Below the pieces are notes generated by a model that ran no database searches, was not told the origin of the DNA, and saw nothing but the letters and a program-made list of their open reading frames with translations. Position numbers and translations under genes: made by a program. From the NCBI GenBank assembly GCA_963708295.1, contig CAVPSJ010000016.1:64001-128000 (forward strand): DNA of 64,000 nucleotides, written 5' to 3'. How positions within the stretch are numbered: the first letter of the stretch is position 1; each line of letters starts with the position of its first letter. Of this stretch, positions 1 through 23,721 are shown in pieces. This DNA is from an uncultured delta proteobacterium (GTDB taxonomy: Bacteria > Desulfobacterota > BSN033 > UBA1163).

Positions 1-2
1 CC

Positions 3-665
3 ATCGTCCGGCGCTTTTCGCAGGACGGATTTAAAGTGGCCTTCACCTTCCATCATCGCCAGGAACGGGCGGAGCAGCTTCAGAAAGAAACCGGTGCCTT
101 CGGGTTCCAGGGAGATCTGCTAGATCGGGAACAGGTCAGGGAGATTGTGGAAAAAGTTCTTGAGACCTTCGGGCACATCGACGTCCTCGTCAACAATGCG
201 GGCCTGACACAGGTGATGCCCTTTGCTTTGATCGAAGAGGAGGATTGGGATCAGATCCTCACGGCCAATCTGAAGACCATGTTCCTGGTCACCAAGGAGG
301 TCGTCCGGTCAATGATCAAACGCAGGAGAGGAGTGGTGATCAATATCGGTTCCCTAGCAGGGCACCGGCTTCTCGATGTTCCCGTTCATTATGCCACAGC
401 CAAGGCGGGGGTCAGTGGCTTTACCTTGTCGCTGGCCAAAGAGCTTTCTCGTTACAATATTCGGGTGAACGAGGTGGTGCCGGGTCTCCTTTCAAAAGGC
501 ATTGGGGAATTGGTCCCCGAGAAAGAAAGAGCCGAATACTTGAGGTATTGTGCGGCAGGGCGTCCGGGTGAGCCGGAGGAGGTTGCAGATTTAGTGGCTT
601 TCCTCGCAAGCGAAAAAGCACGATATATCAACGCGCAGCCCGTGTTTGTCGACGGGGGAATCTGA
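3..665 (+). CDS. fabG: 3-oxoacyl-ACP reductase-like short-chain dehydrogenase (5' end outside window)
   Basis: Frame open from base 3 (IVRRFSQDGFKVAF); VNNAG and YATAK (YxxxK) motifs, C-terminal VDGG; adjacent to a FabZ-like gene. Confidence 0.85.
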   Translation: MVRRFSQDGFKVAFTFHHRQERAEQLQKETGAFGFQGDLLDREQVREIVEKVLETFGHIDVLVNNAGLTQVMPFALIEEEDWDQILTANLKTMFLVTKEVVRSMIKRRRGVVINIGSLAGHRLLDVPVHYATAKAGVSGFTLSLAKELSRYNIRVNEVVPGLLSKGIGELVPEKERAEYLRYCAAGRPGEPEEVADLVAFLASEKARYINAQPVFVDGGI

Positions 666-666
666 A

Positions 667-1110
667 ATGCGCTGGAGATTCGTGGATAGAATGGAGGCCT
701 TTGAGCCCTGGACCTTCTTGAGGGGTCGAAAGTCGATTTCTCTTGAAGAGTATTGTCTGCTCGACGCCTTGGGTCGAAAAGGTGTGTTTCCCGAGACCCT
801 GGCTCTTGAAAGCTGCACTCACCTCGGACGATGGCTCGTCATGAAAAGTTCCGATTTCCTTAAGATCGGCCTTCTTTCCGAGGTTCGTGAGTTTTCTTTT
901 GCGAATGAGTGTGGCATGGGACAATCTCTGGAGATGACAGTGCGTGTGCAGAAAAAAGAAGAGGGTTCCATCGAAGCAGCATGTGAGGCAACGGCGGAAG
1001 GGAGACCCATCTGCCGGGGAGTCCTGATTCTCGCCTTTAGGGAGCTTGGGGAACTCGTCGATCCTGAAACGATGAGAGCCACGTGGCAGGAACTTTATGT
1101 CAAGACTTGA
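667..1110 (+). CDS. FabZ/FabA-like hotdog-fold acyl-ACP dehydratase-family protein
   Basis: ATG one base after the fabG stop; MRWRFVDR start and FPETLALES resemble FabZ F.VDR and MPGVL..EA; the HFP His is absent. Confidence 0.7.
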   Translation: MRWRFVDRMEAFEPWTFLRGRKSISLEEYCLLDALGRKGVFPETLALESCTHLGRWLVMKSSDFLKIGLLSEVREFSFANECGMGQSLEMTVRVQKKEEGSIEAACEATAEGRPICRGVLILAFRELGELVDPETMRATWQELYVKT

Positions 1111-2509
1111 CGAGCGGGCGTACACCTATTTTTCGACGGTTCGATCCATGTGCCGCTCTTGCCGGGCGGTCGTTCCTGCCCGGGTCTTTTTCCAGGAAGG
1201 AAAGGTCTGGCAGCAGAACCTCTGCCCTTGCGGCAACAGCCAGCCGGCATTGATCGCAGCGGACAAGGATTGGTATCTGGAAAATATCCTGAGGCCCATC
1301 TCCGATCGCTCTCCGCTCAAGTTATCACACCCGCTGAAGAATGGATGCCCTCATGATTGCGGACCGTGCGCATGGCATGCCACACCCTGCCAGCTTCCTG
1401 TAATTTCGGTGACGAACGCCTGCAACCTGGGCTGCCCCATCTGTTTTACCTACAATCGTCCCGACCGGACCTATTTTATGTCCGTGGAGGAAATGGAACG
1501 AACCGTTGATTGGATCATTGCATCCTCCGATCGAGTCGATTTGATCAATATCACGGGGGGGGAACCGACCCTCCACCCTCGAATCCTCGACCTCCTGCGC
1601 TGCTGCAAGCGGCCTGAGATCGGCCGGATCACGATGAACTCCAATGGTCTCCGCCTCGCAGAAGATCCCGACCTTTGCGAACAACTGGCCGCGTTAGGTG
1701 CCTATGTCATCCTCTCCTTCAATACCTTCGATCCCAAGACAGCCCTCCTTCTTCATGGAAAGGATGTTGTGGAAGAGAAGCTTCAGGCCATTGAAAACCT
1801 CACCCGGGCAGGGGTCAAGATAACCCTTCTTTACGTGATGATGCGCGATACGAATGAGAATGCCCTTGCGGGGATCCTTGATTTGATAAGGACCAACGAT
1901 CAGATCTTGAGCCTCACGGTTCAGACCATGACCTATACGGGCCAGGGGGGTGGCTATTGGCCCCTTCGTCAACCTATCCCCGTCGATGAGGCGGCACGCA
2001 TGGTGTGCCAGCAGTCCGGTGGTGCATTTGTCTTCTCGGATTTCCTCCCGCGACCGTCGAGCCATCCGTTGTGCTATCTGACATGTTATGTGCTCAAGTC
2101 AGGGCGGACCTTTCTGCCCTTTGCAAGGTTCGCTCCCGCCGAGAAGATCCTTTCCCTCATGAAAGACTCCTATCTGATCCGCCTTGGCGACGAGGAGGAT
2201 TTTTTCAGGGAGGCCATCAACCGGCTCTATTCGGAGGGGAAAACAGAGCCCTTGAAACTATTTCGGGAATTGATCGAAGCGCTCTATCCTCGCAACCGGG
2301 ACATCAGCATCTTTGAGCGTCAGCGGCTTGCGGAGTCGTCGGTTCGTACCATTTACATTCATGCCCATATGGATGAGGACACCTTCGACTGCTCCCGTGC
2401 CATGCTCTGTCCGGACCTCGTGCCGGCAGAACCGGGCAGGCTGATCCCGGCCTGCACGTATAACCTTTTCTACCGGATGAAGGATGAGAGGTTTTATGTT
2501 AACCGATAA
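1097..2509 (+). CDS. Radical SAM protein, Tes/GDGT-MAS (MJ0619)-like family, copy 1
   Basis: N-terminal CRSC...CPCG, GCPHDCGPCAWH, CNLGCPIC, GGEP, SHPLC, and C-terminal MDEDTFD..R...C...GRLIPACTYN. Confidence 0.85.
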   Translation: MSRLDERAYTYFSTVRSMCRSCRAVVPARVFFQEGKVWQQNLCPCGNSQPALIAADKDWYLENILRPISDRSPLKLSHPLKNGCPHDCGPCAWHATPCQLPVISVTNACNLGCPICFTYNRPDRTYFMSVEEMERTVDWIIASSDRVDLINITGGEPTLHPRILDLLRCCKRPEIGRITMNSNGLRLAEDPDLCEQLAALGAYVILSFNTFDPKTALLLHGKDVVEEKLQAIENLTRAGVKITLLYVMMRDTNENALAGILDLIRTNDQILSLTVQTMTYTGQGGGYWPLRQPIPVDEAARMVCQQSGGAFVFSDFLPRPSSHPLCYLTCYVLKSGRTFLPFARFAPAEKILSLMKDSYLIRLGDEEDFFREAINRLYSEGKTEPLKLFRELIEALYPRNRDISIFERQRLAESSVRTIYIHAHMDEDTFDCSRAMLCPDLVPAEPGRLIPACTYNLFYRMKDERFYVNR

Positions 2510-3066
2510 AGATAAAGCGAAGCGGAAAGCAGAGAGGGATGCGCTCCAAACCTACTGCAAAGGCAGCCAGAATCGTCCCTTTGTTCTGGAACGCAACGAT
2601 GCCTATTATGTCTGCGAGGTCCTCTTTCCGTCCATCCTTGACCACATCCGAATCCCCATTCGGTGTCTGATGGTGGGCATCGTGAATGCAGTACCCATTT
2701 CGGCTCTTAAAGCTCTTCTTCTACCGCGTGCTTGGAATGAAGATCGGGAAGGGAGTCTATATCGCTCCTGAGGTATTGATGGATCCGCTCTACCCGTGGC
2801 TGATCGAACTCGAAGATGACTGTTTTCTCGGAATGGGATGCAAGATCTTCACCCATGAGTACACCGCGACCTACTTCAGGATAGGTCGTGTGCGGATCGG
2901 AAGAGGTTCGGTCATCGGAGCCTACTCGATCATACGCTCCGGAGTGACGATTGGAGAAAGAGTGACCGTGGGGTTCAACAGTTACGTCAATAAAGATATT
3001 GGCGATGGCGAGACCGTGGGCGGCGTTCCAGCCAACCCTTTAAGACGGAGTCCGGGAAGAGGATAA
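2496..3066 (+). CDS. Hexapeptide-repeat (left-handed beta-helix) acyltransferase; one frameshift near 2685
   Basis: ORFs 2496-2771 and 2686-3066 join; LGMKIGKGVYI, VRIGRGSVIGAYSII, GVTIG, VGGVPA motifs. Confidence 0.8.
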
Positions 3067-4079
3067 TGGGGTTTCTTGTAAATTATCTGGAAAACGTCGT
3101 GTCCCTTGGATTCCGAAGAGAGCCCGCCCGCCCTCTCCTCTTCTCGTACTATGTCACCCATCGCTGTGAGCTGAACTGTCGCTATTGCTGCGATGGGGAT
3201 GGAAAACGGTTCAAAGAGGATCCCGTCCCCGAACTCTCGGTGGATGAAGCGGCCAGGCTCTTCTCTGTCGTTAGAAGGGCTTGTGACACATTGGATATCA
3301 CGGGTGGGGAGCCGATGGTGCGGGAAGACCTGGAAGAAATACTTGCCTGTGCCCGCCAGATGGGATTCAGAACGGTTCTCAACACAAAAGGGATCGGGTT
3401 GAACGATCGACCCGACGTCATGCGACTTACCGATGTCCTTGTTCTCAGCCTCGATGCCATGGACCCGGAAGCTCTCTCAGAAGTGATCGGACGGCCAAAG
3501 GCGACGGCTGAGAAGATCATCGAGGCCGTTCATTTCGCCCTCTCCAAGAGAAAGGAGACCGGAACAAAGCTTGTCTTCACTGCTGTCGCCACCCCCGCCA
3601 ACCTGACCGGAGTATGGGAAGTACTCCGCTTTGCTTCAAAACATTCCGTTGCCTTTAATGTTTCTCCGGAGATCGTTGGCACCACCGTCCATTCGAAGCT
3701 TCGCGATAATTCCGATTACGATCATCTGATTGCAGAGGTGATCATGGCGAAGAGAGAAGGGTCGGGGATCCTTGGGGTCCCGCGTTATCTTCAGAGGATC
3801 CGGGATTTTGGCCCCTTCCGTTGCTACCCCCTTCTGATGCCGACGATCAGACCGGACGGGAGGATGTATTATCCTTGCCTTGAAAGCAAACGAGCTGAGG
3901 TCAGCCTCCTCGAGGCGGGAAGTTATCCCACGGCCTTGAAGGCAGCCCGTGAACGTGCTGGAGATCTCCCGGACTGCAAGGATAGCTGCCATCTCTTCTG
4001 CCATATGGCGATCTCCCTCTATCAGCGACATCCTTTTTCTGCGCTGGGGGAAATCAAACAGTGGAGGATAAAATGCTGA
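3066..4079 (+). CDS. Radical SAM protein with C-terminal Cys-rich auxiliary-cluster (SPASM/twitch-like) domain
   Basis: VTHRCELNCRYC, TGGEP, C-terminal RCYP...YPC...CKDSCHLFC; TAATG coupling to the upstream gene. Confidence 0.88.
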   Translation: MGFLVNYLENVVSLGFRREPARPLLFSYYVTHRCELNCRYCCDGDGKRFKEDPVPELSVDEAARLFSVVRRACDTLDITGGEPMVREDLEEILACARQMGFRTVLNTKGIGLNDRPDVMRLTDVLVLSLDAMDPEALSEVIGRPKATAEKIIEAVHFALSKRKETGTKLVFTAVATPANLTGVWEVLRFASKHSVAFNVSPEIVGTTVHSKLRDNSDYDHLIAEVIMAKREGSGILGVPRYLQRIRDFGPFRCYPLLMPTIRPDGRMYYPCLESKRAEVSLLEAGSYPTALKAARERAGDLPDCKDSCHLFCHMAISLYQRHPFSALGEIKQWRIKC

Positions 4080-5098
4080 GGCAGATTTCACAGGAACTCC
4101 ATTACCAGCACCGATCCTTGAGGTTGGGTCTCGCTTTCTTCCGCCGCCGCTTGCTCCATTGCAATCTACAGGTGACTTACCGTTGTAATTTTCACTGTCA
4201 GATCTGCGACTTCTGGAAGGAACCTCACGATCCCTCCGATGAACTGACGGTGGAGCAGATCCAGAGGATTGGCAAAAACCTCAACCGTTTGGGCACCCTG
4301 GTCATCTCCCTTGGCGGAGGTGAGCCACTCATCCGCCAGGATCTCTATCAGGTGATCGCCGTGCTCAATAAAACCAACCATTTCCCAATCCTCATCACGA
4401 ACGGTTGGTTCGTGAATGAAACCATAGCCAAAGACATCTTGCGGGCGGGTCTGCAAGAGATCTCGGTTTCCGTCGACTACGCGGATCCGGCCAAACACGA
4501 TGCCCAACGCGGGCGCGTCGGTGCTTGGGATCGTGCCATCAAAGCGCTTGAGCTGCTCAACCGTTATCGTCCTGACCGCCGTCATCGAGTCCACATGATC
4601 ACGGTGCTGATGGACGACAACCTTGAGGAAATCGAACCCCTCCTCCAGCTCTGTCGAGATCTCGGGGTGACTTACTTCATCAACCTCTATTCCTCCGGCC
4701 GTGGAACAAAACCATGCCGTGCGCCAGACGGAAACGTTAGCGATAAACTCCTGGAGCTCAAAACCAGGTACCCTGAGTTCATCTCGTTGACATCCTACGT
4801 GGGGCAGTTCGATCAAGCGATCGCTGAAGGCGGTATCGGCAACTGCCACGCGGGAACTCTCACGTTTAATATCGGAAGCCGGGGCGAGGTCTCACGGTGT
4901 ATCGATACGATCGACGAGCCGGTTGGGAACATTTTGACGGACGAGATCACAGACCTCCGCGACCGACTTCAAACGGCGCAGGAAAAGGGAAGCTGCGCGC
5001 ATTGTTGGACCTCATGCCGGGGCTCTGTCGAGTCTTTATACAAGCCGCCACGAGTCCGCCAGTTCCGGGAGTTCTGTGTCTCGGTGAAGAGGCATTGA
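4073..5098 (+). CDS. Radical SAM/SPASM-like protein
   Basis: VTYRCNFHCQIC, GGGEP, CHAG...GEVSRC...CAHCWTSC; ATG overlaps the upstream stop. Confidence 0.88.
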   Translation: MLRQISQELHYQHRSLRLGLAFFRRRLLHCNLQVTYRCNFHCQICDFWKEPHDPSDELTVEQIQRIGKNLNRLGTLVISLGGGEPLIRQDLYQVIAVLNKTNHFPILITNGWFVNETIAKDILRAGLQEISVSVDYADPAKHDAQRGRVGAWDRAIKALELLNRYRPDRRHRVHMITVLMDDNLEEIEPLLQLCRDLGVTYFINLYSSGRGTKPCRAPDGNVSDKLLELKTRYPEFISLTSYVGQFDQAIAEGGIGNCHAGTLTFNIGSRGEVSRCIDTIDEPVGNILTDEITDLRDRLQTAQEKGSCAHCWTSCRGSVESLYKPPRVRQFREFCVSVKRH

Positions 5099-6513
5099 TG
5101 GAAACTCTGGGGATGACTCAATCGACCTGCAGCGTCTGCCGCGCCGTCATTCCCGCTAAGATCGTCACGGACGGACAGGAGTGTTTACTTCCATAAGTTC
5201 TGCCACGACCATGGCGAATCCCGCATCTTAATCTTCGGTGATCTTCCTCAATTACCTCCGAACGCTCAGATATGTGAAACCGGCGTGGGAACCCAAGACG
5301 TTCGTGGGCGACGCCAGGGCCAGGTGTCCGGAGGGGTGCGGGTTCTGCGAGCGGCATGAACAGCACCTCTGCATGCCAATCATTGAGATTACGAATCGGT
5401 GTGACCTGGTCTGCCCTGTCTGCATCAATGCGTCAGGCAGAGAATTCGACGGGAACTTCAACTCCATGGGATCTCTCGCTTCATGAGTTCCGCACCTTCT
5501 CGATGTGATCCTTGAAGCAGAGCGCCAGGTCGATGTCCTCAATCTATCAGGCGGTGAGCCGCTTCTTCATCCGCGGCTCCTTGATATGATCGACGAAGCC
5601 CTGTCAAGAAAGGAAATCGTTCGGGTCAGCCTCTCCACCAATGGTCTTCGATTCCGAGACGAACCCCGCCTCCTTCAGGAACTCCACAGGCGTCACGTGG
5701 TCATCTCACTGCAATTTGATGGCTTCAATGAAACGATCTACGAGACCCTTCGCGGAAAACCAATGCTTCGGAAGAAACTTGAGATCCTTGACATGCTGAA
5801 AGATTGTGGGATAACGACGTCGCTGACTATGACCGCTGGCGGAGAGGTGAATGACGACCAGTTCCCCCCAATGCTCGATTATCTCTTCGGACATGACCAT
5901 GTGGTCAGTCTGATGGTGCAACCTGTAGCTTTTGTGGGCCGCGGAGGCGCCATGCCACAATAAGGTCAAACGCCTCACGGTTCCCGATGTCGTCCGCCTC
6001 CTCGAGAAAGCAGGCCATCCAGCCGTCAAGGCAGATGACTTTGTGCCTCTGCCCTGCAGCCATCCCCTCTGCTTCAGCCTGGCCTTCTATCTCATGCTCG
6101 ACAGCGGAGGCGTCGTCTCCGTAAGCAGGCTTACAGATGCCGCAACGCTGATGGATTCTCTCTCGAACCGTGTTGTTTTTGGACTCGATCTGGATGAACA
6201 CGAAAGGCTGAAGCAAATGATCTACGACCTCTGGAGCGGGCCGTCAGGAGCGGTTCCGGAGAACAAGGCGGTCCTCGAGACGCTTCGCAATATCCTCAAA
6301 AAGATGTCCCAGACCTGCTGCGGTCCTTTTAATCCACGACAGGCCTTCACGCTTGCAGAGCGAAAGGTAAAGTCGATCTTCATCCATGCGTTCCAGGATG
6401 CGGAAACCTTTGATCTGACTCGGGTCCGGCGGTGCTGCCAGGCCTATCCGCAGCCCGATGGGAAACTTATTCCTGCTTGTGTCCACAACGTCCTGGGGAG
6501 GGAAAGGCGGTGA
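5098..6513 (+). CDS. Radical SAM protein, Tes/GDGT-MAS-like, copy 2 (about four frameshifts: ~5180, ~5245, ~5470, ~5950)
   Basis: Fragments join as METLGMTQSTCSVC...KFCHDHG...CPEGCGFCERH...CDLVCPVC...GGEP...CSHPLC...FQDAETFDLTRVRRCCQAY.QPDGKLIPACVHN; TGATG coupling at 5096-5100. Confidence 0.8.
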
Positions 6514-6572
6514 AGATCCTTTGGGTCATTTGCCCGAGCTGCTACGCCGGGCATCTTCTGAAGAGGAGAGCG

Positions 6573-8065
6573 ATGATTTTCTATACGCGGAATACCTATC
6601 TCGATCATAACGCGACAACGCCCGTTGCGAAGGAAGTGCGAAGAGCGATGGAACGTGTACTCAAGAAGATCCCCGGAAATGCATCGTCCCTTCACACCCA
6701 TGGACGGACCGCACGCGGGCTGGTGGACCAGGCCCGGAGATCGGTTGCTGCGCTTCTCGGATGCCCACCCGAACAGGTGATCTTTACTTCCGGTGGAACC
6801 GAGGGAAATAATGCAGTGATCAAAGGCGTGTTTGCCGAATCCGGGAAGGGCCATATCATTACATCAAAGATCGAGCACGAATCCGTTCTCGGAGCGTGCG
6901 AACAGGTGGAGAAGATGGGTGGAGAGGTCACCTACCTCTCCGCCGGCAGAGACGGGCTCGTCCGCCTCGAAGATGTGAAGGCCGCCATTCGCCCGGACAC
7001 GATCCTGGTCTCGATCATGCACGGCAATAACGAGACCGGCGCGATTCAGCCAGTCGAGGAGATCGGACGGATCTGCCAAAGTACCGGAATTCCATTTCAT
7101 ACCGATGCCGTTCAGACGTATGGAAAGATCCGGACGAATGTGGATGAACTGGGTTGCGAATTCCTCACGCTGACAGCGCACAAAATCAACGGTCCCAAGG
7201 GAGCAGGGGCCCTCTACTGGCGCGGTAAGACGAAATGGAACCCTCTGGTCTATGGGGGCGACCAGGAACAAAAGCTACGGGCGGGCACGGAAGGCGTTCA
7301 CCAGATCGTGGGTCTGGGTGCGGCAGCGGATTTGGCACGAGGTCGAATGGAACAGGAACTGCCCAGGCTCTGGGAACTTCGGAGACAACTTCTTCAGGGG
7401 CTGAGAAAGATCGTCCCCGATATCCGGGTCAATGAAGCGCCTCCGGACCGGCAGCTTCCTGGGACCATCAATCTTACTTTTCCGGGAAAGGAGGGCGTTC
7501 GAATTCTGGCCGGCCTCGACTGTTATGAGATCAGCGTATCGATCGGGTCAGCTTGCACCGCCGACCGGGTTGAGCCTTCCCACGTGCTCCTGGGAATGGG
7601 ACTGAGTGAGAAGGAGGCCCTTTCGTCGATTCGCATCAGCATGGGGACAACGACAAGACCTGCAGATGTCCGCTACTTGCTGGCAGTCCTTCGAAGAAGT
7701 CCTGAAAGGTGACCCTGCAGGCTTTTCGTACCTTGATCCCCAGCACCTTACCGAAGAGCGAATCCGTTCCGAGAAGACCTTTCTGATCGATCTTCGGTTT
7801 CCCTACGAGCGGATGCTGTCTCCCACCATTCCTGGCGCAGCAGGAGTGGTCGCATATCTATTTTGAGAGATATCTGAAGCGGATACCCTGGGACAAAGAG
7901 GTGATCATGATGTGTGGCACCGGAATCTTTTCCTTCTCGGCGGGATACCGACTTGCCAGAGCGGGTCATCCGGCTGTTCGGGTCGTTTACGGCGGGTATG
8001 CGGCGTGGCACGGCCTTTACCCTGAACTCATTCACCGCTTAAGAGGGGGACCGCCTTCGGGTTAG
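6573..8065 (+). CDS. NifS/IscS-type cysteine desulfurase, probably fused to a C-terminal rhodanese domain (frameshifts ~7695 and ~7840)
   Basis: GAGGAG RBS before ATG 6573; YLDHNATT, FTSGGTE, TAHK (PLP Lys), GSACT (catalytic Cys); downstream frames read LIDLRFPYE...IPGA and MMCGTG...GGYAAW to TAG 8065. Confidence 0.8.
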
Positions 8066-8123
8066 GGCAACCGCATCGTATCCGCTGGTCAGACGAAACG
8101 ATATCCGGCGGGCCGCTTTTTTC

Positions 8124-8750
8124 CTATACCAGGAATGGAATAAACCTGTATCGCACCCGCTTCATGTATTCCCGATACTCCGGCTGCTGAATGAGAAATC
8201 GCTCTTCAAGGATCGCCCGGTAGACGTAACATGCTGTCGAGATAATGAAAACAAGCACGGTAAAAAGGTTGAAGTGACTCATCAGGAAGCCCACACGCAG
8301 GAGGATATCGGTCGCATACATGGGATGCCTGACGATCCCGTAAAGACCACGCGATTTCAGTCTGCGGAACGCGATCAGGATGCCGAAACTGCGTCCGAGG
8401 TTTAACAGCGTAGCGACGCCGAGCACATTCGCGCAAAAAATGACCACCTGCGAGATCTGCTTTGCCACCTGGGGCCCCGTTGCCGGTTGTCCCATAAACG
8501 CTGCTCCGGAACAGAACGCAATGATCGCAATCGCTTGATGCAAGAGGTTTGTCTGAATCAACTGATGGGGTTTACGAATGAGAAAGATAACGGCGAGCAG
8601 CAGACTTTGAATGGTAAAACTGATTTCCACATACCCGAGCGTCCCCTTAAGATGGTATTGGTAAGTCTGCCAGATCCCCCACCCGGCGAAATTGAGAAAT
8701 AGGTAGATATTAAGAAGGGATTGCCAGTGTTTTTTGAAAAACGCTTCCAA
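8124..8750 (-). CDS. Isoprenylcysteine carboxyl methyltransferase / PEMT-family integral membrane methyltransferase
   Basis: Several hydrophobic helices; GLYGIVRHPMY and EERFL..EYREY.KRVRYRFIP signatures. Confidence 0.85.
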   Translation of the reverse strand: MEAFFKKHWQSLLNIYLFLNFAGWGIWQTYQYHLKGTLGYVEISFTIQSLLLAVIFLIRKPHQLIQTNLLHQAIAIIAFCSGAAFMGQPATGPQVAKQISQVVIFCANVLGVATLLNLGRSFGILIAFRRLKSRGLYGIVRHPMYATDILLRVGFLMSHFNLFTVLVFIISTACYVYRAILEERFLIQQPEYREYMKRVRYRFIPFLV

Positions 8751-8905
8751 TCGATTTTCGTTCCGATAGGATACCGCAGGCTAAAGCTTGCAGCTACAAA
8801 GAGAATATCACAATACAACGTCCTGAGTCACGCCTGACTGCTTAACCACCCGTTGCATCAATAAAAATCTAGAAACCGCATTTTCATTTCAACCTCAGGG
8901 TTGAA

Positions 8906-9901
8906 TTACGGGATCAGTGGCGACAGCGCATGGGCAAGCCGGATTATTTCAGGGCCATTCAACCAACTTGACGCGGATACATGCGATAGCAGCGATGTCA
9001 ACACCAACCGGTGGTCTTTGTTGCGATGGCACGTCTCAAGTTCAGAGAAAAGGCGTTCTGCCTGCGCCGCCGGAACAACTTGATCGTGCCGGTCGTGAAT
9101 GAGCGTCACCGGACAGTCGAGATGCTCCAGATTGCCAGCGGGGGAAAGTTTCTTGAGCACCTCCGGCTCCTGGAAAACGCTTGAATACTTCCGTATCGAG
9201 GTCATGGAGATAGCGAATCATAAAAACGTCGTTTTTCTTCCAAAGACGCTTCGGAACAATATCGGTCGAGCAGCATTTCGATTTCCTGCCAGACCTCCTG
9301 AGAAAAAGCAACAGCATCCCGTCGCCCATAAAGAAAGACAAGCCGTTGATGGATGGCCTCGTCCCATTCCGTGTCGCTCTGTGGCTCGCGTTCCAGGTTC
9401 AGGGCATATCCTTCCAGAACATCTGATAAGTTATGATACGCGCCGAGCGTGATGACCCACGGAATGTGCTTTGATACTTCGAGGTGACCCGCCACGATGA
9501 GCGCGTAACTTCCGCCAAAACTAAACCCAATCAACCCCACCGGCTGGTGAATCGTGTCGGCGGTGAGGGCCACGACGTTTGCGAGTTCGTCCAGGTCGGA
9601 TGTCTCCCATCGACAGGATGCCAGTCCCCCGAGGGTCGGGACCACACAGGTGGTCCCAAAGTGCGCCGCGGTGCGGGCAAAGTGGATCAGTCGTGGGTCC
9701 TGTCCGCCTTTGAGGGTCACCCCGTGGACAGCAACGCAGGCAGCCAATGTTCTATGTTGATGCTGGTAGACCGACCATGCGCGTCCCCGATGAAGAGCAT
9801 TCCTGATGTTCTACAACCGAGGGATCTGGAGGGCGCTGGTTTCCCCTCCATGCTAACCGCGCCAGAAAAGCGTGCGATTTGATGAGTCTCAATAATCCCA
9901 T
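8906..9901 (-). CDS. Alpha/beta hydrolase (frameshifted near 9750-9830 and ~9205)
   Basis: MGLLRLIKS start, VHG, GFSFGG nucleophile elbow, LIHDRHDQVVP and LSHV (Asp/His) across three frames. Confidence 0.7.
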
Positions 9902-9905
9902 GGGA

Positions 9906-11313
9906 TCAGTGCGTGATGCGTTCTCCGCCGCGATGGACGACATTATACGCGCATGTGGGCATCAGTCTTCCATCCGCGAGCATCGTGCGGCTGATGCACA
10001 TTTTGGCGCGCCCGATATCGAAGTTCAATCCATCCATGTAGGAATGGACGAGCACCACCTTGACCAGGTTTTGACTGCGGGCTTTGAATTCCTCGAGAGA
10101 GAGTGCGCCCGCAACCGGAAATAACATATCAATGAGATGGCGAATCGCCGCCAGTCCCTTTACCGTATCCGGATCCTTCTTCCCGCTGGCCCAAAGTCTA
10201 TTGACCACATCGCGGAAGAGACTCTCAAGTTCGGCGTTCAACACCAAAAGCGCTTTATTCGAGATGAGGGCTTGATAGTCTAGAGGGTCTAAGAACCGTT
10301 TCAGCGGAATGAACCCGCCGTCAGGCAGAGGCAGATGGTAAGCAATCTGCAGACATTCAGGATGCGAGAAGGACACGGGAGAAAAATCCGAAGCCAAAAT
10401 CGTTCCACCGGTTTGCGCCTCCAGGCGGATCAGGACATCCTGGGCGGTGATGCGGTGTTCTCTGCCATGGTCGAAACGGCTGCCTTTGCCTATATAAGCC
10501 ATGGTCGCAATATCCAGCGTGCCAATGGAGGGATCCGTTAGAAACATTTCGTAGAGTTTGCCAAGTTCGTGGTCGTTGATTCCGCCAACGATGGTTGGGC
10601 AAAGTCCGACTTTCGAGCCGGCGGTTTTGAGGACCGTCAGCGCCCGTCTCTTCTCGTCCAAAAGAGCTTTTCCTCTGAGCGTCGAGTAGATGCCGTCCGA
10701 GAAGCCATCCCATTGCAACACGACATAGAGGTTTTCTTTCGCCATTCGGCTGGCAAAGTTAGGATCGCCGGCAATCCGCTGGCCATTGGTGTACACCCAG
10801 ATGTCTTCGAATCCAAACTGTTTGAGCAGTCTCACAAGATCGAAGAAATGAGGGTGCACGGTTGGTTCTCCGCCACCCAACGTCACGATTTGCCCTGGTC
10901 CGGCATAGGCCAGAATGGCTTTTACCATGGATTCCATCTCGGCAATGGATACGAAATGGCCGTGTTTGTCAGGACTTCCAAGACAGATTGGACAATTGAG
11001 ATCACAGGCATTGGTAATCTCAAAGAGGAAGAAGGCTGATTTCTGCCGGTGTCCAGCACATTCTCCGCAGTCCAGAGGACATCCTTTGGCCATGACGGTC
11101 TGCCGGCTCGCCGGCGTAACCGTCTGAGCGGAGAAGGACTGTAAGCTCCGTAACCAATCGTAATCAGCAGGCGATGCGCGTTTTAAAAGAACCGTGATCT
11201 GGACAAAACTTCTCATGATGTACCCCTTGTTCATCCTCAACCAGGTCGGCCGTCAGTAAGCGGTGGCAGACCGGGCAAATACTTGCACGCGACTGATGAA
11301 AAATGCGTTTCAT
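9906..11313 (-). CDS. Radical SAM protein, Tes/GDGT-MAS-like, copy 3 (frameshift ~11170)
   Basis: ATG 11313 after GGAGGGG gives MKRIFHQSRASICPVC...KFCPDHG; continues in the 9906-11240 frame with GCPLDCGECAGH, CDLNCPIC, SHPEC, YMDGLNFD..R..C...DGRLMPTCAYN. Confidence 0.85.
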
Positions 11314-11410
11314 TTTCGCCCCTCCAAGAGTTTCTTAACTTTTCAGGGTATGTTATCCCGGATCTTTCATAAGAGTTTATCCATGTCCGTTTTTGCGACT
11401 GGCGGTTATC

Positions 11411-12748
11411 TCACACTCCCGGTTTTTTGATTCGAGCCGGTTTTGCGCGTACCGGCGTCGTGATAGATGTCTGGCACACCCTCAACGGTTCTAACTGAGA
11501 TGAGGTTCTCAGTTGCGCGTAAGTCGAATTCGACTCACACAAATGAAGGTCCACCGCTTCCGAATCCGCTGTTTCGCCGTCAAGGTAGAGGGTATACCCT
11601 CTACGATTCTGTCCAGAATGACTCTCAGACGTCAAGAAGTATTTCAAACTCAGGATGCCGCTTTTACGGACTGCTCTCACAACCTCGTCTTCAGTAAGCC
11701 AATCGCCTCCCAGGTCAAAGCTCCGGCAATCGCGTCCGTGAATTTTTATGACGGGCGGTCTGAGGCTGATGAGAGAAACCACGTCACCGGTTTGATAGTT
11801 CCACAGTCCGCCCGGAGTTGTAACACAGAGCTTATACTTCTGGTTGAGAGCCACGGTTCCAAGGCCTGCGATTTGGCCTTTTCTGTCCATGGGAAGAAAC
11901 GTAAAGAACACTCGTCGATAATTTAGCAGAAATACTCCTGCAGATTGGGGCAGACCATACGTCCCTTCATTCGAGCCATAGACATCCACCACAGTAGCAT
12001 TCGGGAAGGCTGACTTATAAAGGTGGGCTTGGTCTACCGCCCAGTAACCACAATTGAAGACAATTTGCACGTCAGGTAGCACGATGTCTGTGGCGAGGGT
12101 AAAGGCAACGATTTCTATCGGATTGCCGGCAATTACCGTGACCCGGTGACGGAGTGCAAGGTCTGCAAGCCGAGTGAAATTGGGAGGTTCTTCCTGCTCA
12201 GGAAGATCCTTGTAAGTGGGAAGAAACCTGCTCCTGAAGGTTTGTAAATAGGCAAAGGGTGTACCTTCGGCATAGACTGTCCATCGACCCAAGGGCCGTC
12301 CCTTTCTGGGGCCAATATACAATGTCTTGCCATGCTGCCAGGACAGAGAGCCATGCTGCAAGCCGCCAAGGAGCGCCGCGTCGACCGCCGTACTCCGTGT
12401 GCTTCTGAGGATCGCACGACTCAAGGGAATCAGTTTCGGCATAGCCTCCGTTCCTGATGTCATTTCGAAGCACTCGGGTCTGCCCGCAAAGAGCACATCG
12501 TCTTCACCTGCGATGATTGCCTCGATACTCGTTCGGAAATCATCGTAAGATTTTGGCGGCACCCGCTCCAGAAAATCCTGGTTTTTTTGAATCGAGGCAA
12601 AATCGTGCTCCTTGCCGAAGGCTGTTTCTGCGCTCCTCTTCACCAGTCGAAGCAAAAGCTTCTTCTGGGAAACGAGCGGATCAGCATTCAAGAGCTGCCA
12701 CTTCCGTAACGTGGCAAGAGCCAAAAGAAACCGGTTTTCGATAGCCAT
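11411..12748 (-). CDS. GH3-family acyl-acid amido synthetase (ANL adenylating superfamily)
   Basis: T.FG.EH.F, MTSGT..PKLIP, YGSNEG, GGLWNYQTGDVV, GR motifs. Confidence 0.85.
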   Translation of the reverse strand: MAIENRFLLALATLRKWQLLNADPLVSQKKLLLRLVKRSAETAFGKEHDFASIQKNQDFLERVPPKSYDDFRTSIEAIIAGEDDVLFAGRPECFEMTSGTEAMPKLIPLSRAILRSTRSTAVDAALLGGLQHGSLSWQHGKTLYIGPRKGRPLGRWTVYAEGTPFAYLQTFRSRFLPTYKDLPEQEEPPNFTRLADLALRHRVTVIAGNPIEIVAFTLATDIVLPDVQIVFNCGYWAVDQAHLYKSAFPNATVVDVYGSNEGTYGLPQSAGVFLLNYRRVFFTFLPMDRKGQIAGLGTVALNQKYKLCVTTPGGLWNYQTGDVVSLISLRPPVIKIHGRDCRSFDLGGDWLTEDEVVRAVRKSGILSLKYFLTSESHSGQNRRGYTLYLDGETADSEAVDLHLCESNSTYAQLRTSSQLEPLRVCQTSITTPVRAKPARIKKPGV

Positions 12749-12916
12749 TGGATTTGCTTCAGAGTGGCCAAGGAACGTCTGTCTTTCGGAGAGGAGTCTA
12801 CTTTTTCCCGGATGGCATGTCAACCTTTTTCTGGAAACGAAAGTCGACAAACCTCCCGCTGGCAAAACCCTCCCTTGGTCAACCCCAGTGACCGAGAAGT
12901 GAGAAGGTTTTTTTGC

Positions 12917-14978: not shown

Positions 14979-15000
14979 GAATGGAGAACGTTTCTCTTCT

Positions 15001-15177
15001 TGACCGGAGCGTGCCCCGTCCCGCCAAAGCGGGATAGGCGGGGTTAAGGGGCGCAATATGAATGAAATTTCCTTTGCTCACATTCTGTTCGCCACTGGCG
15101 TGCCCGGGAAGCTCTTCGACATGCTCAGAGCCGGGAGCTTTCGTCGAACGGCCCCGCCCTGTGGGCGGCGAGCTTCA
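15001..15177. repeat. Palindrome-ended repeat family B, copy 1
   Basis: TGACCGG...GGCGGGG.TAAGGGGC...GAATGAAATTTCCTTTGCTC...GCCCCGCCCT.TGGGCGG.GAGCTTCA, shared with 54086-54219 and 20850-20957. Confidence 0.8.
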
Positions 15178-15180
15178 ATT

Positions 15181-17005
15181 TCAGAGTTGATGCTTCTTGA
15201 GGGTCTCTTCGGTCGGGATTCCCGAGACATCCCATCCCCTCAAGGCATAGTATTCGTCGATCATCTGGTTGAGGTTTTCTTCGCCGATAAACTGTCCTTT
15301 GGCCGGTCCGTCGGGAAGGGGTTCGTTGAGCGTCCGGTAGGGAAGCGTATCGTCTTCCCGCGTGAATCCCTCCCTGTTGTTGAACATCCGGATGAGCGTT
15401 TCAATGCGGTCGGCGATCTTCAGGAAGTCTTCTTTTGAAACGGACTCTCCGCTGGCAGCATGGTAATACTCAGAATAGACATCCAGCGACATGGGAACGA
15501 ACTTGGCGGGCATATCGCAAACCAGCAAGGAATGAAGGACGCAGTTTTCATCGTACAATTCTTTGATCATGGCCGCCTTGCCTTCGATGGTGTAAGGAGG
15601 ATAACCCCCGAGAATCTCTTTTGCAGGAGGCCAGGCCCTTCGATGGCAGGCCCCTCTCGGGCTCACGGCATAGGAGAGTCCCGATCCGAAAGCACCTCTG
15701 GGTTCATAAGCAGGAAACTCCAATCCCCTTGACGTGCATCGCAAATCGTTCGGAGTCGTTGCCCACGTAGCGCGGCGACAGCTCCTCACTCCTTCCGCTA
15801 GGATGTCCCCAAAACCCTGTCGCATGGCTATTCATTTCAACGGCCGCGAGGCTGGCATCGGCATCTCCAAAACGGATTTCCAAACCCTCTGTCTGGCTTG
15901 AGGAGATCAATTCCCTTTCGAAACATTCCATGACAAAGGCAATGATGTTGCCCGCCGAAATCGTATCGATTCCCAGTTTGTCGCAGAGAATATTGGCCTG
16001 CATGACGACGGGAAGACAGTCAATGAGCTGATTCGATCCAAACATGCCCAGGGTCTCATATTCCGGCCCTTCGAGGGTGATGCCTTTGTATTTGCCCTCA
16101 GAGACTTCGGTGACCAAGCTGCAATGTATGAAACAGGAGAGACAGGCCTTATGGCTCTTGAGGCTCTTATAGACGCCGACGGAATCGATTTTCTCCAAGG
16201 CCTTCTCCCAAGTACCGAAGCGAAAATTCATCGTAGGCAGAATTCCACCTACGTGGGTTACGTTCAGGGTCAGAGGGGTCCCGAACTTCATTCTGGCCTG
16301 AGCCACGGGGCTTTTCAGTGCGATCCGGTAGTTTTTGCGGTTCAGATCGACGATCGCCTGGCGATCAAAGGTCTCAACGCTTTTGTCTCCCTTGACCACA
16401 ATGGCCTTGAGGTTCTTTGAGCCCATGACCGCTCCCACGCCACCCCTCCCGGCCTGGCGGTAAAGGTCGCTGTTGATGCAGGCGAACTTGACCAGCTTCT
16501 CGCCCGCCGGACCGATCGATGAGACCCCTGCGGACGGATTTTTCTCCATCTCTTTCAGCATCCGCTCCGTTTCGAAGCTGTCTTTTCCCCAGAGGAAACG
16601 TGCGTCTCGGATTTCGATACCCTTGCCGTCCATCCTGAGATAGCAGGGATGATTGGATTTCCCGCGGATCACCAGGCCATCGTAGCCTGCCTTCTTTAAT
16701 TCCACCGATATCCTTCCGCTGGAATAGCTATCGCACCAACCCTGAGTCAGCGGTGATTTGGTGACCACGACGAATTTGGAGGAACCGGTAACATAGGTTC
16801 CTGTGAGCGGTCCGGTCAAAAAGAAGAGCAGGTTCTCCGGAGAGAGGGGGTCTGTCTTCGGTGGCAGCATATCATAGAGAAGCTTGATTCCTAACCCTCT
16901 CCCGCCCAGGTATTTCTCATACAATTCCTTCTTGACGGGGAGTGTTTTGGACTTCCCTGAAGTCAGATCTATCTCTAAAAGTCTCCCGCAAATTCCTTTC
17001 ATCAT
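15181..17005 (-). CDS. aor: Aldehyde:ferredoxin oxidoreductase (W/Mo-dependent AOR family); frameshifts ~15730-15840
   Basis: YLGGRGLG, KSPLT, GRGG.GAVMGSKNLKAI, C..C...C, GPEYET, CD.LG.DTIS, RGACH, EYY..RGWD motifs. Confidence 0.88.
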
Positions 17006-23415: not shown

Positions 23416-23721
23416 CTGACCTCCGCCTCCATTAGGGTGAATATATGGTTATCGTATCATAGCTTTTTTGAGGTATCGAAGGGTGCGGATTTATAGCGAG
23501 ACTGTAGGAAAAGTCCCTGAGCAGATTCTCGGGGAGATGCAGAAAAACATGACCACACAGAATGCGCCACAATCAACGATCTCACGATGATGAAGGATCA
23601 TGAGACCCCCCCCAAAACACCCGTTAACTCTACTGAAGGGTTTTTCGACAGTCTCAGCAGATAGTGAACCCTTTAGATCCTCCACGGGTGTTTTAAAGTT
23701 TGGTAGATCTCTGGCAAATGT

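Follow-up and report, generated by a model that had tools for sequence, protein, structure and literature searches.

What does a bacterium make with a fatty-acid synthesis line of its own, three relatives of the archaeal enzyme that joins lipid tails, and a private source of sulfur? The question is raised by a gene cluster at the start of the window, by which we mean the whole stretch of 64,000 nucleotides analysed here (C16:64001-128000, from contig CAVPSJ010000016.1 of assembly GCA_963708295.1, an uncultured delta proteobacterium of the Desulfobacterota). Genes were called from open reading frame (ORF) listings together with Pfam and NCBIfam profile scans of the ORFs (Table 1). A first-pass annotation, made from the letters of the window alone, had described twelve genes in two convergent arms. 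All twelve were found at its coordinates by ORF listing and domain scans, and its assignments of three Tes-like genes among five radical S-adenosylmethionine (SAM) genes, of a GH3 gene, a hydrolase and an ICMT/PEMT methyltransferase are upheld. The overlapping stop and start codons that it reported for the plus arm are real and can be read directly from the ORF coordinates and the sequence (1097, 2484/2496, 3066, 4061/4073 and 5098; the junctions read ATGA at 3063-3066 and TGATG at 5096-5100). It had also predicted that an acyl carrier protein (ACP) and a ketosynthase (KS) are encoded upstream of base 1. Both are present at C16:59092-63959, in the upstream DNA that we call L001, together with the FabA/FabZ-type dehydratase (DH) DH1 and the KSa/KSb pair.

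The cluster is real, widely conserved and uncharacterised. We consider it probable, with appreciable room for doubt, that it is devoted to the biosynthesis of a tailored acyl chain, most probably a lipid, that this genome acquired it horizontally, and that the frameshifts it carries are likeliest errors of the assembly. Our best reading of the product is a radical-tailored, possibly sulfur-bearing, N-acyl amino-acid lipid. From gene content and conservation, which are what we observed directly, we infer the chemistry: cross-linking, cyclisation or sulfuration of the chain, followed by amidation, acylation and methylation.

Conservation and the chain-building module

A scan of species-representative genomes with TES1, the first of the Tes-like proteins, returned 42 loci, 23 of which have a TES1 of at least 55% identity and are referred to as close; 20 of these 23 are labelled as Planctomycetota lineages. 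The proteins of the window cluster were mapped onto the loci, and genes were counted in close loci with sufficient flanking DNA, namely 16 with >5.5 kb upstream, 18 with >2.2 kb downstream and 16 with >6 kb downstream. Upstream, ACP, KR2 and DH2 are each present in 14 of 16 loci, KSb, KSa and DH1 in 13, NTR in 11, KR1 in five and U1 in four. TES2 follows TES1 in 17 of 18 loci, and further downstream HEX and RSA each occur in 10 of 16, RSB in nine, NifS in four and MT in three. The 19 more distant loci, mostly labelled Myxococcota or 'Deltaproteobacteria' (one each is labelled Bacillota, Acidobacteriota, Bacteroidota, Proteobacteria and Planctomycetia), carry a variant of the cluster, with a KS in eight, an ACP in ten and a second Tes-like gene in 11.

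A scan of metagenomes with TES3 gave another 23 loci. The whole convergent two-arm layout recurs on four metagenome contigs (L083, L084, L087 and L097) with 78-91% amino acid identity and every gene intact, and a co-directional order GH3-TES3-DH1-KSa-KSb-NTR-ACP-KR2-DH2-TES1-TES2 is found in L088-L090, L093 and L094. In 16 of the 23 metagenome loci the gene directly upstream of TES3 is GH3, and the remaining seven end at that point. Two different arrangements thus hold the same gene set, which speaks well for GH3 and TES3 acting together with the synthase, TES1 and TES2. Since none of the 16 close genome loci with >6 kb downstream carries GH3-TES3, the pair is a genuine but optional module. 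Conserved synteny, on which the first-pass annotation had set store, is therefore found elsewhere: dozens of loci show this gene order, so that the arrangement exceeds chance. The annotation had not recognised the combination as a described cluster, and searches of the literature on bacterial Tes clusters, on ladderane and aryl-polyene gene clusters and on the expression of Tes and branched glycerol dialkyl glycerol tetraethers (brGDGT) since 2023 found no characterised or described counterpart. A 2026 review, as far as its available text goes, names only ladderanes and the Jaw5 product as ketoacyl lipids for which modification by radical SAM enzymes is proposed. The present cluster family would add a third, widespread case, and a set of intact clusters is now at hand for expression.

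Table 1. Genes of the cluster, with positions in the window unless marked C16 or L001.
Feature	Position	Strand	Evidence
Upstream module U1, DH1, KSa, KSb, KR1, NTR, ACP; tightly packed, same strand as plus arm	C16:59092-63959	+	domain scan of 5 kb before window
KR2, FabG-type short-chain dehydrogenase (ketoreductase, KR)	1..665 (window ORF 3-665; start 48 nt before window; full ORF L001:17952-18665)	+	Pfam adh_short_C2 1.7e-51 full, 3.7e-50 window part; YxxxK
DH2, divergent FabZ-like hotdog protein	646..1110	+	no Pfam match; NCBIfam FabZ 35 bits vs cut-off 113
TES1, Tes/GDGT-MAS-like radical SAM, 470 residues, intact	1097..2509	+	PDB 7TOL; Pfam Radical_SAM and HMPTM zinc ribbon
HEX, hexapeptide-repeat acyl/acetyltransferase	2484..3066	+	Pfam Hexapep; one frame change near 2700-2720
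RSA, radical SAM, 337 residues, not Tes-like (MoaA- or PTO1314-like)	3066..4079	+	Pfam Radical_SAM 2.1e-16
RSB, radical SAM, ~341-345 residues, SPASM-maturase-like	4061..5098	+	Pfam Radical_SAM 4.4e-25
TES2, second Tes-like radical SAM gene	5098..6513	+	pieces match Tes and TrsS; ~5 frame changes in assembly
NifS-type cysteine desulfurase with C-terminal rhodanese	6573..8065	+	Pfam Aminotran_5 7.3e-76; two frame changes near 7690 and 7840
MT, polytopic membrane methyltransferase, ICMT/PEMT superfamily	8124..8750	-	Pfam PEMT 28.9 bits, ICMT 24 bits
ABH, alpha/beta-fold serine hydrolase or acyltransferase	8906..9901	-	weak Pfam Abhydrolase_6, DLH, Thioesterase and Peptidase_S9 on pieces; three frame changes
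TES3, third Tes-like radical SAM gene	9906..11337	-	NCBIfam TrsS 224.5, Tes 177.7 bits; one frame change near 11170
GH3-family acyl acid amido synthetase (adenylating)	11411..12796	-	Pfam GH3 N 1.2e-23, GH3_M 1.8e-09

The upstream module supplies what is needed to build a chain. DH1 has orthologues carrying DHFPxxPxMPG...E, i.e. the catalytic His and Glu; KR1 is a FabG protein and, like KR2, contains YxxxK; NTR is a nitroreductase-fold flavoprotein; the ACP has the DSL serine (LGADSLD); and U1 is a small hydrophobic membrane protein with no family assigned. The domain scan found a weak KS N-terminal domain only in KSa, and a full KS, split by a frameshift in this assembly, in KSb. When orthologues of the two were aligned against two FabF-like genes of the same genome, the Cys-His-His triad (ACA..HGT..GH) was seen to be kept in all five aligned KSb sequences, and all three of its residues to be gone in all four aligned KSa sequences. 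Because KSb keeps the triad and KSa is without it, the two are a pair of the KS/chain-length factor (CLF) type and the module is similar to a type II polyketide synthase: an active KS, a triad-less KS homologue, an ACP with the DSL serine, a KR and a DH are all found. The orthologues of DH2 keep a Glu motif, LPESLxLES, and lack HFP with its catalytic His, and DH2 probably acts as a partner to DH1 or as its non-catalytic subunit. Pfam and NCBIfam scans found no enoyl reductase of the FabI, FabK, FabL or FabV type among the cluster proteins; NTR is a candidate substitute. The KS/CLF pair, the two KRs, the FabZ-type DH with its His-less partner and NTR would then build the chain on the cluster's own ACP.

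A KS/CLF line without an enoyl reductase could also lead to a polyene-derived hydrocarbon closed into rings by the radical SAM enzymes, following the logic of ladderanes and aryl polyenes. A close parallel is found in anammox bacteria, in their putative ladderane Cluster I (KustE3603-3608: amxACP, amxFabZ, amxFabF2/amxFabF-mut, a phytoene dehydrogenase (PDH) and a B12 radical SAM protein; 10.64898/2026.05.19.726425; PMC13459092), which shares with the present cluster a private ACP, a FabZ variant, a KS with a catalytically dead homologue and tailoring by radical SAM enzymes, the product being unproven in both cases. The KS/CLF pair with its dead partner, the two hotdog proteins of which one lacks the catalytic His, and the lack of a FabI, FabK or FabV homologue in the cluster fit such a route, and a study of the Cariaco Basin reported antiSMASH 'ladderane' clusters with no assigned function outside the anammox bacteria, in Desulfobacterota, Myxococcota, Planctomycetota and other phyla. 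In relatives of our cluster, moreover, a gene for a B12-binding radical SAM protein precedes GH3. It is full length (413-451 residues) in L082, L088-L091, L094 and L095, reduced to a remnant of 94-162 residues in two-arm relatives (L097:5306-5590, L083:3837-4325), and absent from the window; the match of the relatives' protein to the ladderane-cluster family TIGR04072 is weak, at 38.9 bits against a cut-off of 360. Unlike Cluster I, the window has Tes-like rather than B12-type radical SAM proteins and adds GH3, a nitroreductase and a rhodanese, and no PDH-like or phytoene-desaturase domain was seen among the cluster proteins scanned. NTR, found in 11 of 16 loci, may be the enoyl reductase after all, and the archaeal enzyme GDGT-MAS acts on saturated carbons (PMC9433317). 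A ring-bearing hydrocarbon from a polyene therefore seems to us decidedly improbable.

Tes-like proteins and sulfur transfer

The three Tes-like proteins are homologous over their full length to archaeal Tes/GDGT-MAS (Methanocaldococcus jannaschii MJ0619; PDB 7TOL/7TOM; NF045702) and have the same domain order, in which a rubredoxin-like ribbon, an N-terminal [4Fe-4S] cluster, the radical SAM core and a C-terminal cluster domain follow each other. Residues 15-466 of TES1 align with residues 25-504 of the 7TOL chain (E 2.9e-41), and intact orthologues of TES2 and TES3 match 7TOL with E values of 3.7e-43 and 6.6e-51, respectively. Metal ligand positions were read by eye from these alignments, using the intact orthologues for TES2 and TES3 and the ligands given in PMC9433317. 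The radical SAM motif CX3CX2C is CNLGCPIC in TES1, CDLVCPVC in TES2 and CDLNCPIC in TES3, all aligned to CNLNCPIC of 7TOL. The N-terminal cluster motif CX3CX2C..H (C73, C77, C80 and a His in GDGT-MAS), the rubredoxin-like site CX2C...CX2H (with CPC for CPxH in TES1) and three cysteines of the C-terminal auxiliary cluster (SHxxC, the RCC position and PxCxxN) are aligned in all three proteins.

TES1 obtains 169 bits from the Tes model and 170 bits from TrsS, and the C-terminal piece of TES2 in the window obtains 56 and 59.5 bits; the cut-offs are 450 bits for Tes (NF045702) and 490 bits for TrsS (NF045646, an uncharacterised family), TES3 also falls below them, and TrsS scores equal to or above Tes for all three proteins. 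As the scores are far below the family cut-off, the three are paralogues of Tes and not orthologues. In a quick maximum-likelihood tree of 68 Tes-like proteins from the fetched loci, rooted at the midpoint, the 22 rows of TES2 and the 12 rows of TES3 are each set apart from all others by a branch with 100% SH-aLRT support, the TES1-type proteins being the remainder; TES1, TES2 and TES3 are old paralogues and not recent duplicates. The same genome contains no other close Tes-like gene outside the cluster. TES2 is 80-86% identical to its intact orthologue in L097 over three frames and a local double shift. TES3 has about 50 orthologues of 468 residues, 53-87% identical and with a zinc ribbon, which in the window lies N-terminally in another frame, one frame change away; in 300 genomes of the same phylum no close relative of TES3 was found, the best match having about 36% identity.

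The bacterial proteins differ from archaeal Tes in several respects. They are three paralogues of ~30-33% identity, and they are encoded inside an ACP/KS cluster linked to a rhodanese, not among genes for isoprenoid ether lipids; this context argues for a substrate other than saturated isoprenoid ether lipids. Two residues of GDGT-MAS, Met439 (which is labile) and Tyr459, are invariant across 1000 archaeal homologues, and the M439A, Y459F and Y459L variants stay active (PMC9433317). Neither residue is kept in TES1 or TES3: at the Met439 position TES1 has a gap, TES2 a His and TES3 a Val, and at the Tyr459 position the three have, in the same order, Val, Tyr and Thr. The substrate of GDGT-MAS forms an S-C bond with the C-terminal cluster, and a thiolated lipid is released when SAM is limiting (PMC9433317). 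By analogy, TES1, TES2 and TES3 would attack unactivated carbons of the ACP-built chain, the substrate radical would be captured on a sulfide of the C-terminal cluster, and the captured radical would go on either to a C-C bond, by cyclisation or tail coupling, or to a C-S bond that is kept.

Tail coupling is the usual assumption for bacterial Tes homologues: the enzymes would join the tails of two fatty acyl chains, giving membrane-spanning lipids of the diabolic-acid or brGDGT type. It is the sole chemistry demonstrated for Tes/GDGT-MAS (PMC9433317), and a Black Sea preprint read Tes homologues in 110 of 684 Planctomycetota metagenome-assembled genomes (MAGs) as possible brGDGT potential, with no neighbourhood analysis in the text available. 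Bacteria also possess Mss (Thermotoga, Thermoanaerobacter), a radical SAM enzyme that according to a review acts on fatty acyl tails under anoxic conditions and makes dicarboxylic acids from fatty acids. By the description given, Mss works on ordinary membrane fatty acids and has no synthase cluster of its own. Coupling ordinary membrane lipids would need neither a private KS/CLF/ACP line nor GH3, a rhodanese and three paralogues; the ether and glycerolipid genes Ger, ElbD, Agps and Pls were not seen among the annotated cluster genes; and the TES proteins score under the Tes cut-off. Membrane-spanning lipids are for these reasons an unlikely product of the cluster. The point has wider consequences, because bacterial Tes homologues are now being counted in metagenomes as brGDGT markers, especially in Planctomycetota. 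Many such matches may report a different, unseen product, since the homologues described here sit, with dozens of relatives, in a private carrier-protein line with sulfur-transfer and amide-forming enzymes.

The sulfur-transfer protein of the window is a fusion. Its desulfurase part scores 398.8 bits against NifS (TIGR03402; cut-off, 530.75 bits) and is NifS-like without being a member of the equivalog family. The intact L097 orthologue is a 496-residue fusion of Aminotran_5 and rhodanese domains, with the rhodanese at residues 394-479, and aligns to window positions 6573-8062 in three frames. The window ORF at 7606-7866 has no Pfam match by itself, and the rhodanese part of the first-pass assignment was recovered through this orthologue, aligned across two frame changes. 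Two other NifS-like genes exist elsewhere in the genome, for which reason we read the third copy in the cluster as dedicated to it. Loci without the fusion encode, directly after TES2, a membrane protein of ~440 residues with an N-terminal membrane helix and a rhodanese domain, in which the cysteine of the active-site loop is present in six of seven aligned sequences (L022:12831-14153 and L089:13831-15375 are examples, and 12 further loci have it). Its C-terminal part is a polytopic domain of ~280 residues that matches nothing in Pfam or NCBIfam and contains invariant cysteines including C-x5-C-x2-C-x7-C. Altogether, all but two of the 16 close loci with >6 kb downstream have a rhodanese gene (ten of the membrane type and four NifS fusions, 14 in total; the exceptions are L025 and L049). 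Rhodanese-type sulfur transfer is thus nearly universal in the cluster family, and it occurs in two unrelated architectures.

In the proposed pathway the dedicated NifS-rhodanese would supply persulfide sulfur. A sulfur-retaining version of GDGT-MAS chemistry is plausible by analogy, because GDGT-MAS itself makes an S-C bond and releases a thiolated lipid. PMC9433317 draws a parallel between GDGT-MAS and the sulfur-inserting radical SAM enzymes LipA, BioB and MiaB/RimO, which sacrifice a cluster and in which a carbon radical is likewise captured by a sulfide of an auxiliary cluster. As with these sulfur inserters, a dedicated sulfur supply is encoded here. The analogy is one of mechanism only: unlike members of the LipA, BioB and MiaB families, the TES proteins find their best NCBIfam matches in Tes and TrsS. 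If sulfur is retained, the cluster would link the S-C intermediate of GDGT-MAS to a natural sulfur-lipid pathway. Taken to its end, the analogy suggests that the Tes-like enzymes have given up C-C welding for the insertion of sulfur, that the C-S bond is kept while NifS-rhodanese or the membrane rhodanese resupplies the sulfur, and that the ICMT-type enzyme S-methylates the thiol, the product being a thiolated or methylthiolated N-acyl amino-acid lipid. We offer this chain of steps as a speculation that has some chance of being right and a greater chance of being wrong. If true, anaerobic Planctomycetota and their partners in gene transfer would have a new class of lipid, and the Tes family a reaction of a new type.

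Sulfur could also be destined for a small cofactor or metabolite derived from a fatty acid, in the manner of lipoate or biotin. It would be inserted into the ACP-bound chain, and GH3 would act as the ligase to an amine, a logic that parallels that of LipA or BioB together with LplA. The rhodanese in 14 of 16 loci and the dedicated third NifS copy would suit such a product, as would the S-C bonds that GDGT-MAS forms on its cluster (PMC9433317) and the use of ATP by GH3 enzymes to form amides from free acids. A small product sits less well with the membrane proteins of the cluster and its relatives (MT, U1 and the polytopic rhodanese), or with a KS/CLF pair, which implies several rounds of elongation, and no protein or peptide acceptor is evident. 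A cofactor is accordingly, in our judgement, rather an improbable outcome, and we return to the tailored lipid.

Proposed release and tailoring of the chain

The minus arm contains a GH3 protein, a membrane methyltransferase and an alpha/beta hydrolase, and these classes also make up the OlsH-OlsG-OlsI operon of the planctomycete Singulisphaera acidiphila, with its GH3-like N-acyl-ornithine synthetase, N-methyltransferase and alpha/beta-hydrolase O-acyltransferase (PMC12493201). OlsH is an established case of GH3 chemistry on fatty acids, N-acylating ornithine with a free fatty acid and ATP (PMC12493201), and three motifs of the window protein (TSGTEAMPK, YGSNE and GLWNYQTGD) resemble by eye the three nucleotide motifs quoted there. 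The arm departs from the Ols operon in having a Tes-like gene inside it and in its GH3, which is under the OlsH cut-off; its sequence places the protein in the GH3 family and not in the OlsH equivalog. In 22 cluster-bearing genomes, searches with GH3 found weak, partial matches alone, at 28-42% identity. One Gemmataceae MAG with the cluster encodes, at another site, a true OlsH (710 bits). The neighbouring ORFs of OlsH-like genes in two MAGs (L113 and L106) have no similarity to MT or ABH, and these ORFs may not be OlsG or OlsI. The longest ORF of GH3 reaches 12931, and the orthologue starts near 12796 (a 460-residue orthologue aligned from residue 15).

ABH and MT are less specific. The intact ABH orthologue has 330 residues, matches Abhydrolase_6/_1 and aligns to the window in four frame segments; ABH has a GFSFGG nucleophile elbow, and a search of a protein atlas returned generic hydrolase clusters only. 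MT obtains weak NCBIfam matches to isoprenylcysteine O-methyltransferase (39.5 bits), LmtA (25) and MddA (22); its weak matches, those in Pfam included, span O-, N-, phosphate- and S-methylating members of the superfamily, and it lies between TES2 and NifS-rhodanese in L013, L017 and L033. From these assignments, ABH would be a thioesterase that releases the chain or an O-acyltransferase that acylates it; GH3 would adenylate the released acid and amidate it with an amino acid or an amine; and the membrane methyltransferase MT would methylate the product. Between ABH and MT, a related contig from sequencing run X3 joins position 8716 to 8905, skipping the 188 nt at 8717-8904. These may be an insertion in the window, because the intact orthologue has a gap of 27 nt there.

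HEX, RSA and RSB would form an optional tailoring module. The top NCBIfam match of HEX is heptaprenylglyceryl phosphate O-acetyltransferase, at 82 bits against a cut-off of 300, and its intact orthologue of 193 residues (L097:17378-17959) aligns to the window in two frames. RSA always co-occurs with RSB. All NCBIfam matches of RSA are far under the cut-offs, as are those of RSB, the best of which are WgkB, AhbD and PTO1314.

Several of these observations weigh against a radical-tailored N-acyl lipid as the product. The Tes-like proteins fall short of the family cut-offs, and TES1 and TES3 have lost both Met439 and Tyr459. The sole NCBIfam match of GH3 is the lyso-ornithine lipid synthetase OlsH (NF052613), at 92.5 bits against a cut-off of 620. 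GH3, TES3 and ABH are found in none of the 16 close genome loci with >6 kb downstream, so that this arm is not part of the core. RSA and RSB resemble maturases of peptides or cofactors. NifS-rhodanese could merely serve the iron-sulfur demand of five radical SAM enzymes. No genes for glycerolipid synthesis or export were seen among the cluster genes. Finally, the window cluster shows about 12 frame changes relative to intact orthologues, which could mean decay in this genome.

Frame changes and the origin of the island

The frame changes, on which the first-pass annotation had not remarked, are distributed over HEX (one), TES2 (five), NifS-rhodanese (two), ABH (three) and TES3 (one), and DH1, KSa and KSb of the upstream module appear to be affected as well. 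Two of those in TES2 compensate each other and give rise to an in-frame TGA at 5484. Selenocysteine at this codon was ruled out: the orthologue reads DLSLHEFR, and the window encodes this peptide in another frame.

If the frameshifts are real, the cluster in this genome is a decaying, non-functional acquired island. About 12 of them in 13 kb, with five in TES2, fit this reading; the cluster was not found in 14 genomes of the same genus; and the remnant of the B12 radical SAM gene in close relatives demonstrates that gene loss occurs in the lineage. Breaks are also found outside the island, where an aldehyde:ferredoxin oxidoreductase (AFOR) gene on the minus strand is split into overlapping ORFs at 15181-15825 and 15704-17005 and the dsrA match (C4:967076-968203) contains one in-frame TGA that may be due to assembly error, to a compensated frameshift or perhaps to recoding. 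Contigs from other public sequencing runs lack, among the matches listed, exactly one base at 5954 (runs X3 and X5), at 7694 and at 7843 (X3), and these are three of the inferred break points; no run held more than a 0.14 fraction of the sampled words. Amino acid identity to the intact orthologues is 77-91% in every frame, with no sign of relaxed drift. Because breaks occur outside the island, single bases are absent in other runs and identity is high in all frames, we judge it considerably more probable that the frameshifts are consensus errors of a long-read assembly than that they are real. Decay of the island is accordingly unlikely in our view.

The genome encodes DsrA, the match just mentioned scoring 568.9 bits and thus above the family cut-off. 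On both sides of the cluster the DNA has 73-82% nucleotide identity to genomes of the same genus, which rules out a mis-binned contig. No close homologue of TES1 was found in any of the 14 same-genus genomes, two of which give weak matches (25% and 30% identity), and in a quick tree the window TES1 nests among sequences labelled Planctomycetota, beside a metagenome contig. The G+C content of the cluster region is 0.53-0.57, compared with 0.47-0.52 for the contigs of the genome. Horizontal acquisition of the cluster as an island is the best reading of these data, and no mobility genes are present among the ten ORFs upstream of it.

The surroundings of the island contain further features. Upstream, L001:1199-2629 (C16:47199-48629) is an ORF of 476 residues with the receiver domain of a response regulator (7e-32) and a full LpxC deacetylase domain (3.2e-84), a fusion conserved in same-genus genomes at 75-81% nucleotide identity. 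Additional ketosynthase pairs are located at C4:228309-231010 and 221679-222704, C17:538505-555449 and C15:301414-303928, some of them within a few kb of genes for B12-binding radical SAM proteins, and possibly belong to other lipid or polyketide-like clusters. Short dispersed repeats of ~120-230 nt occur in many copies of 80-91% identity across contigs of this genome and its congeners, including sites at L001:4364-4517, 6822-7048 and 8189-8358 and at window positions ~15000-15180 and 23490-23660; they look like repetitive extragenic palindromic (REP) or miniature inverted-repeat transposable (MITE) elements.

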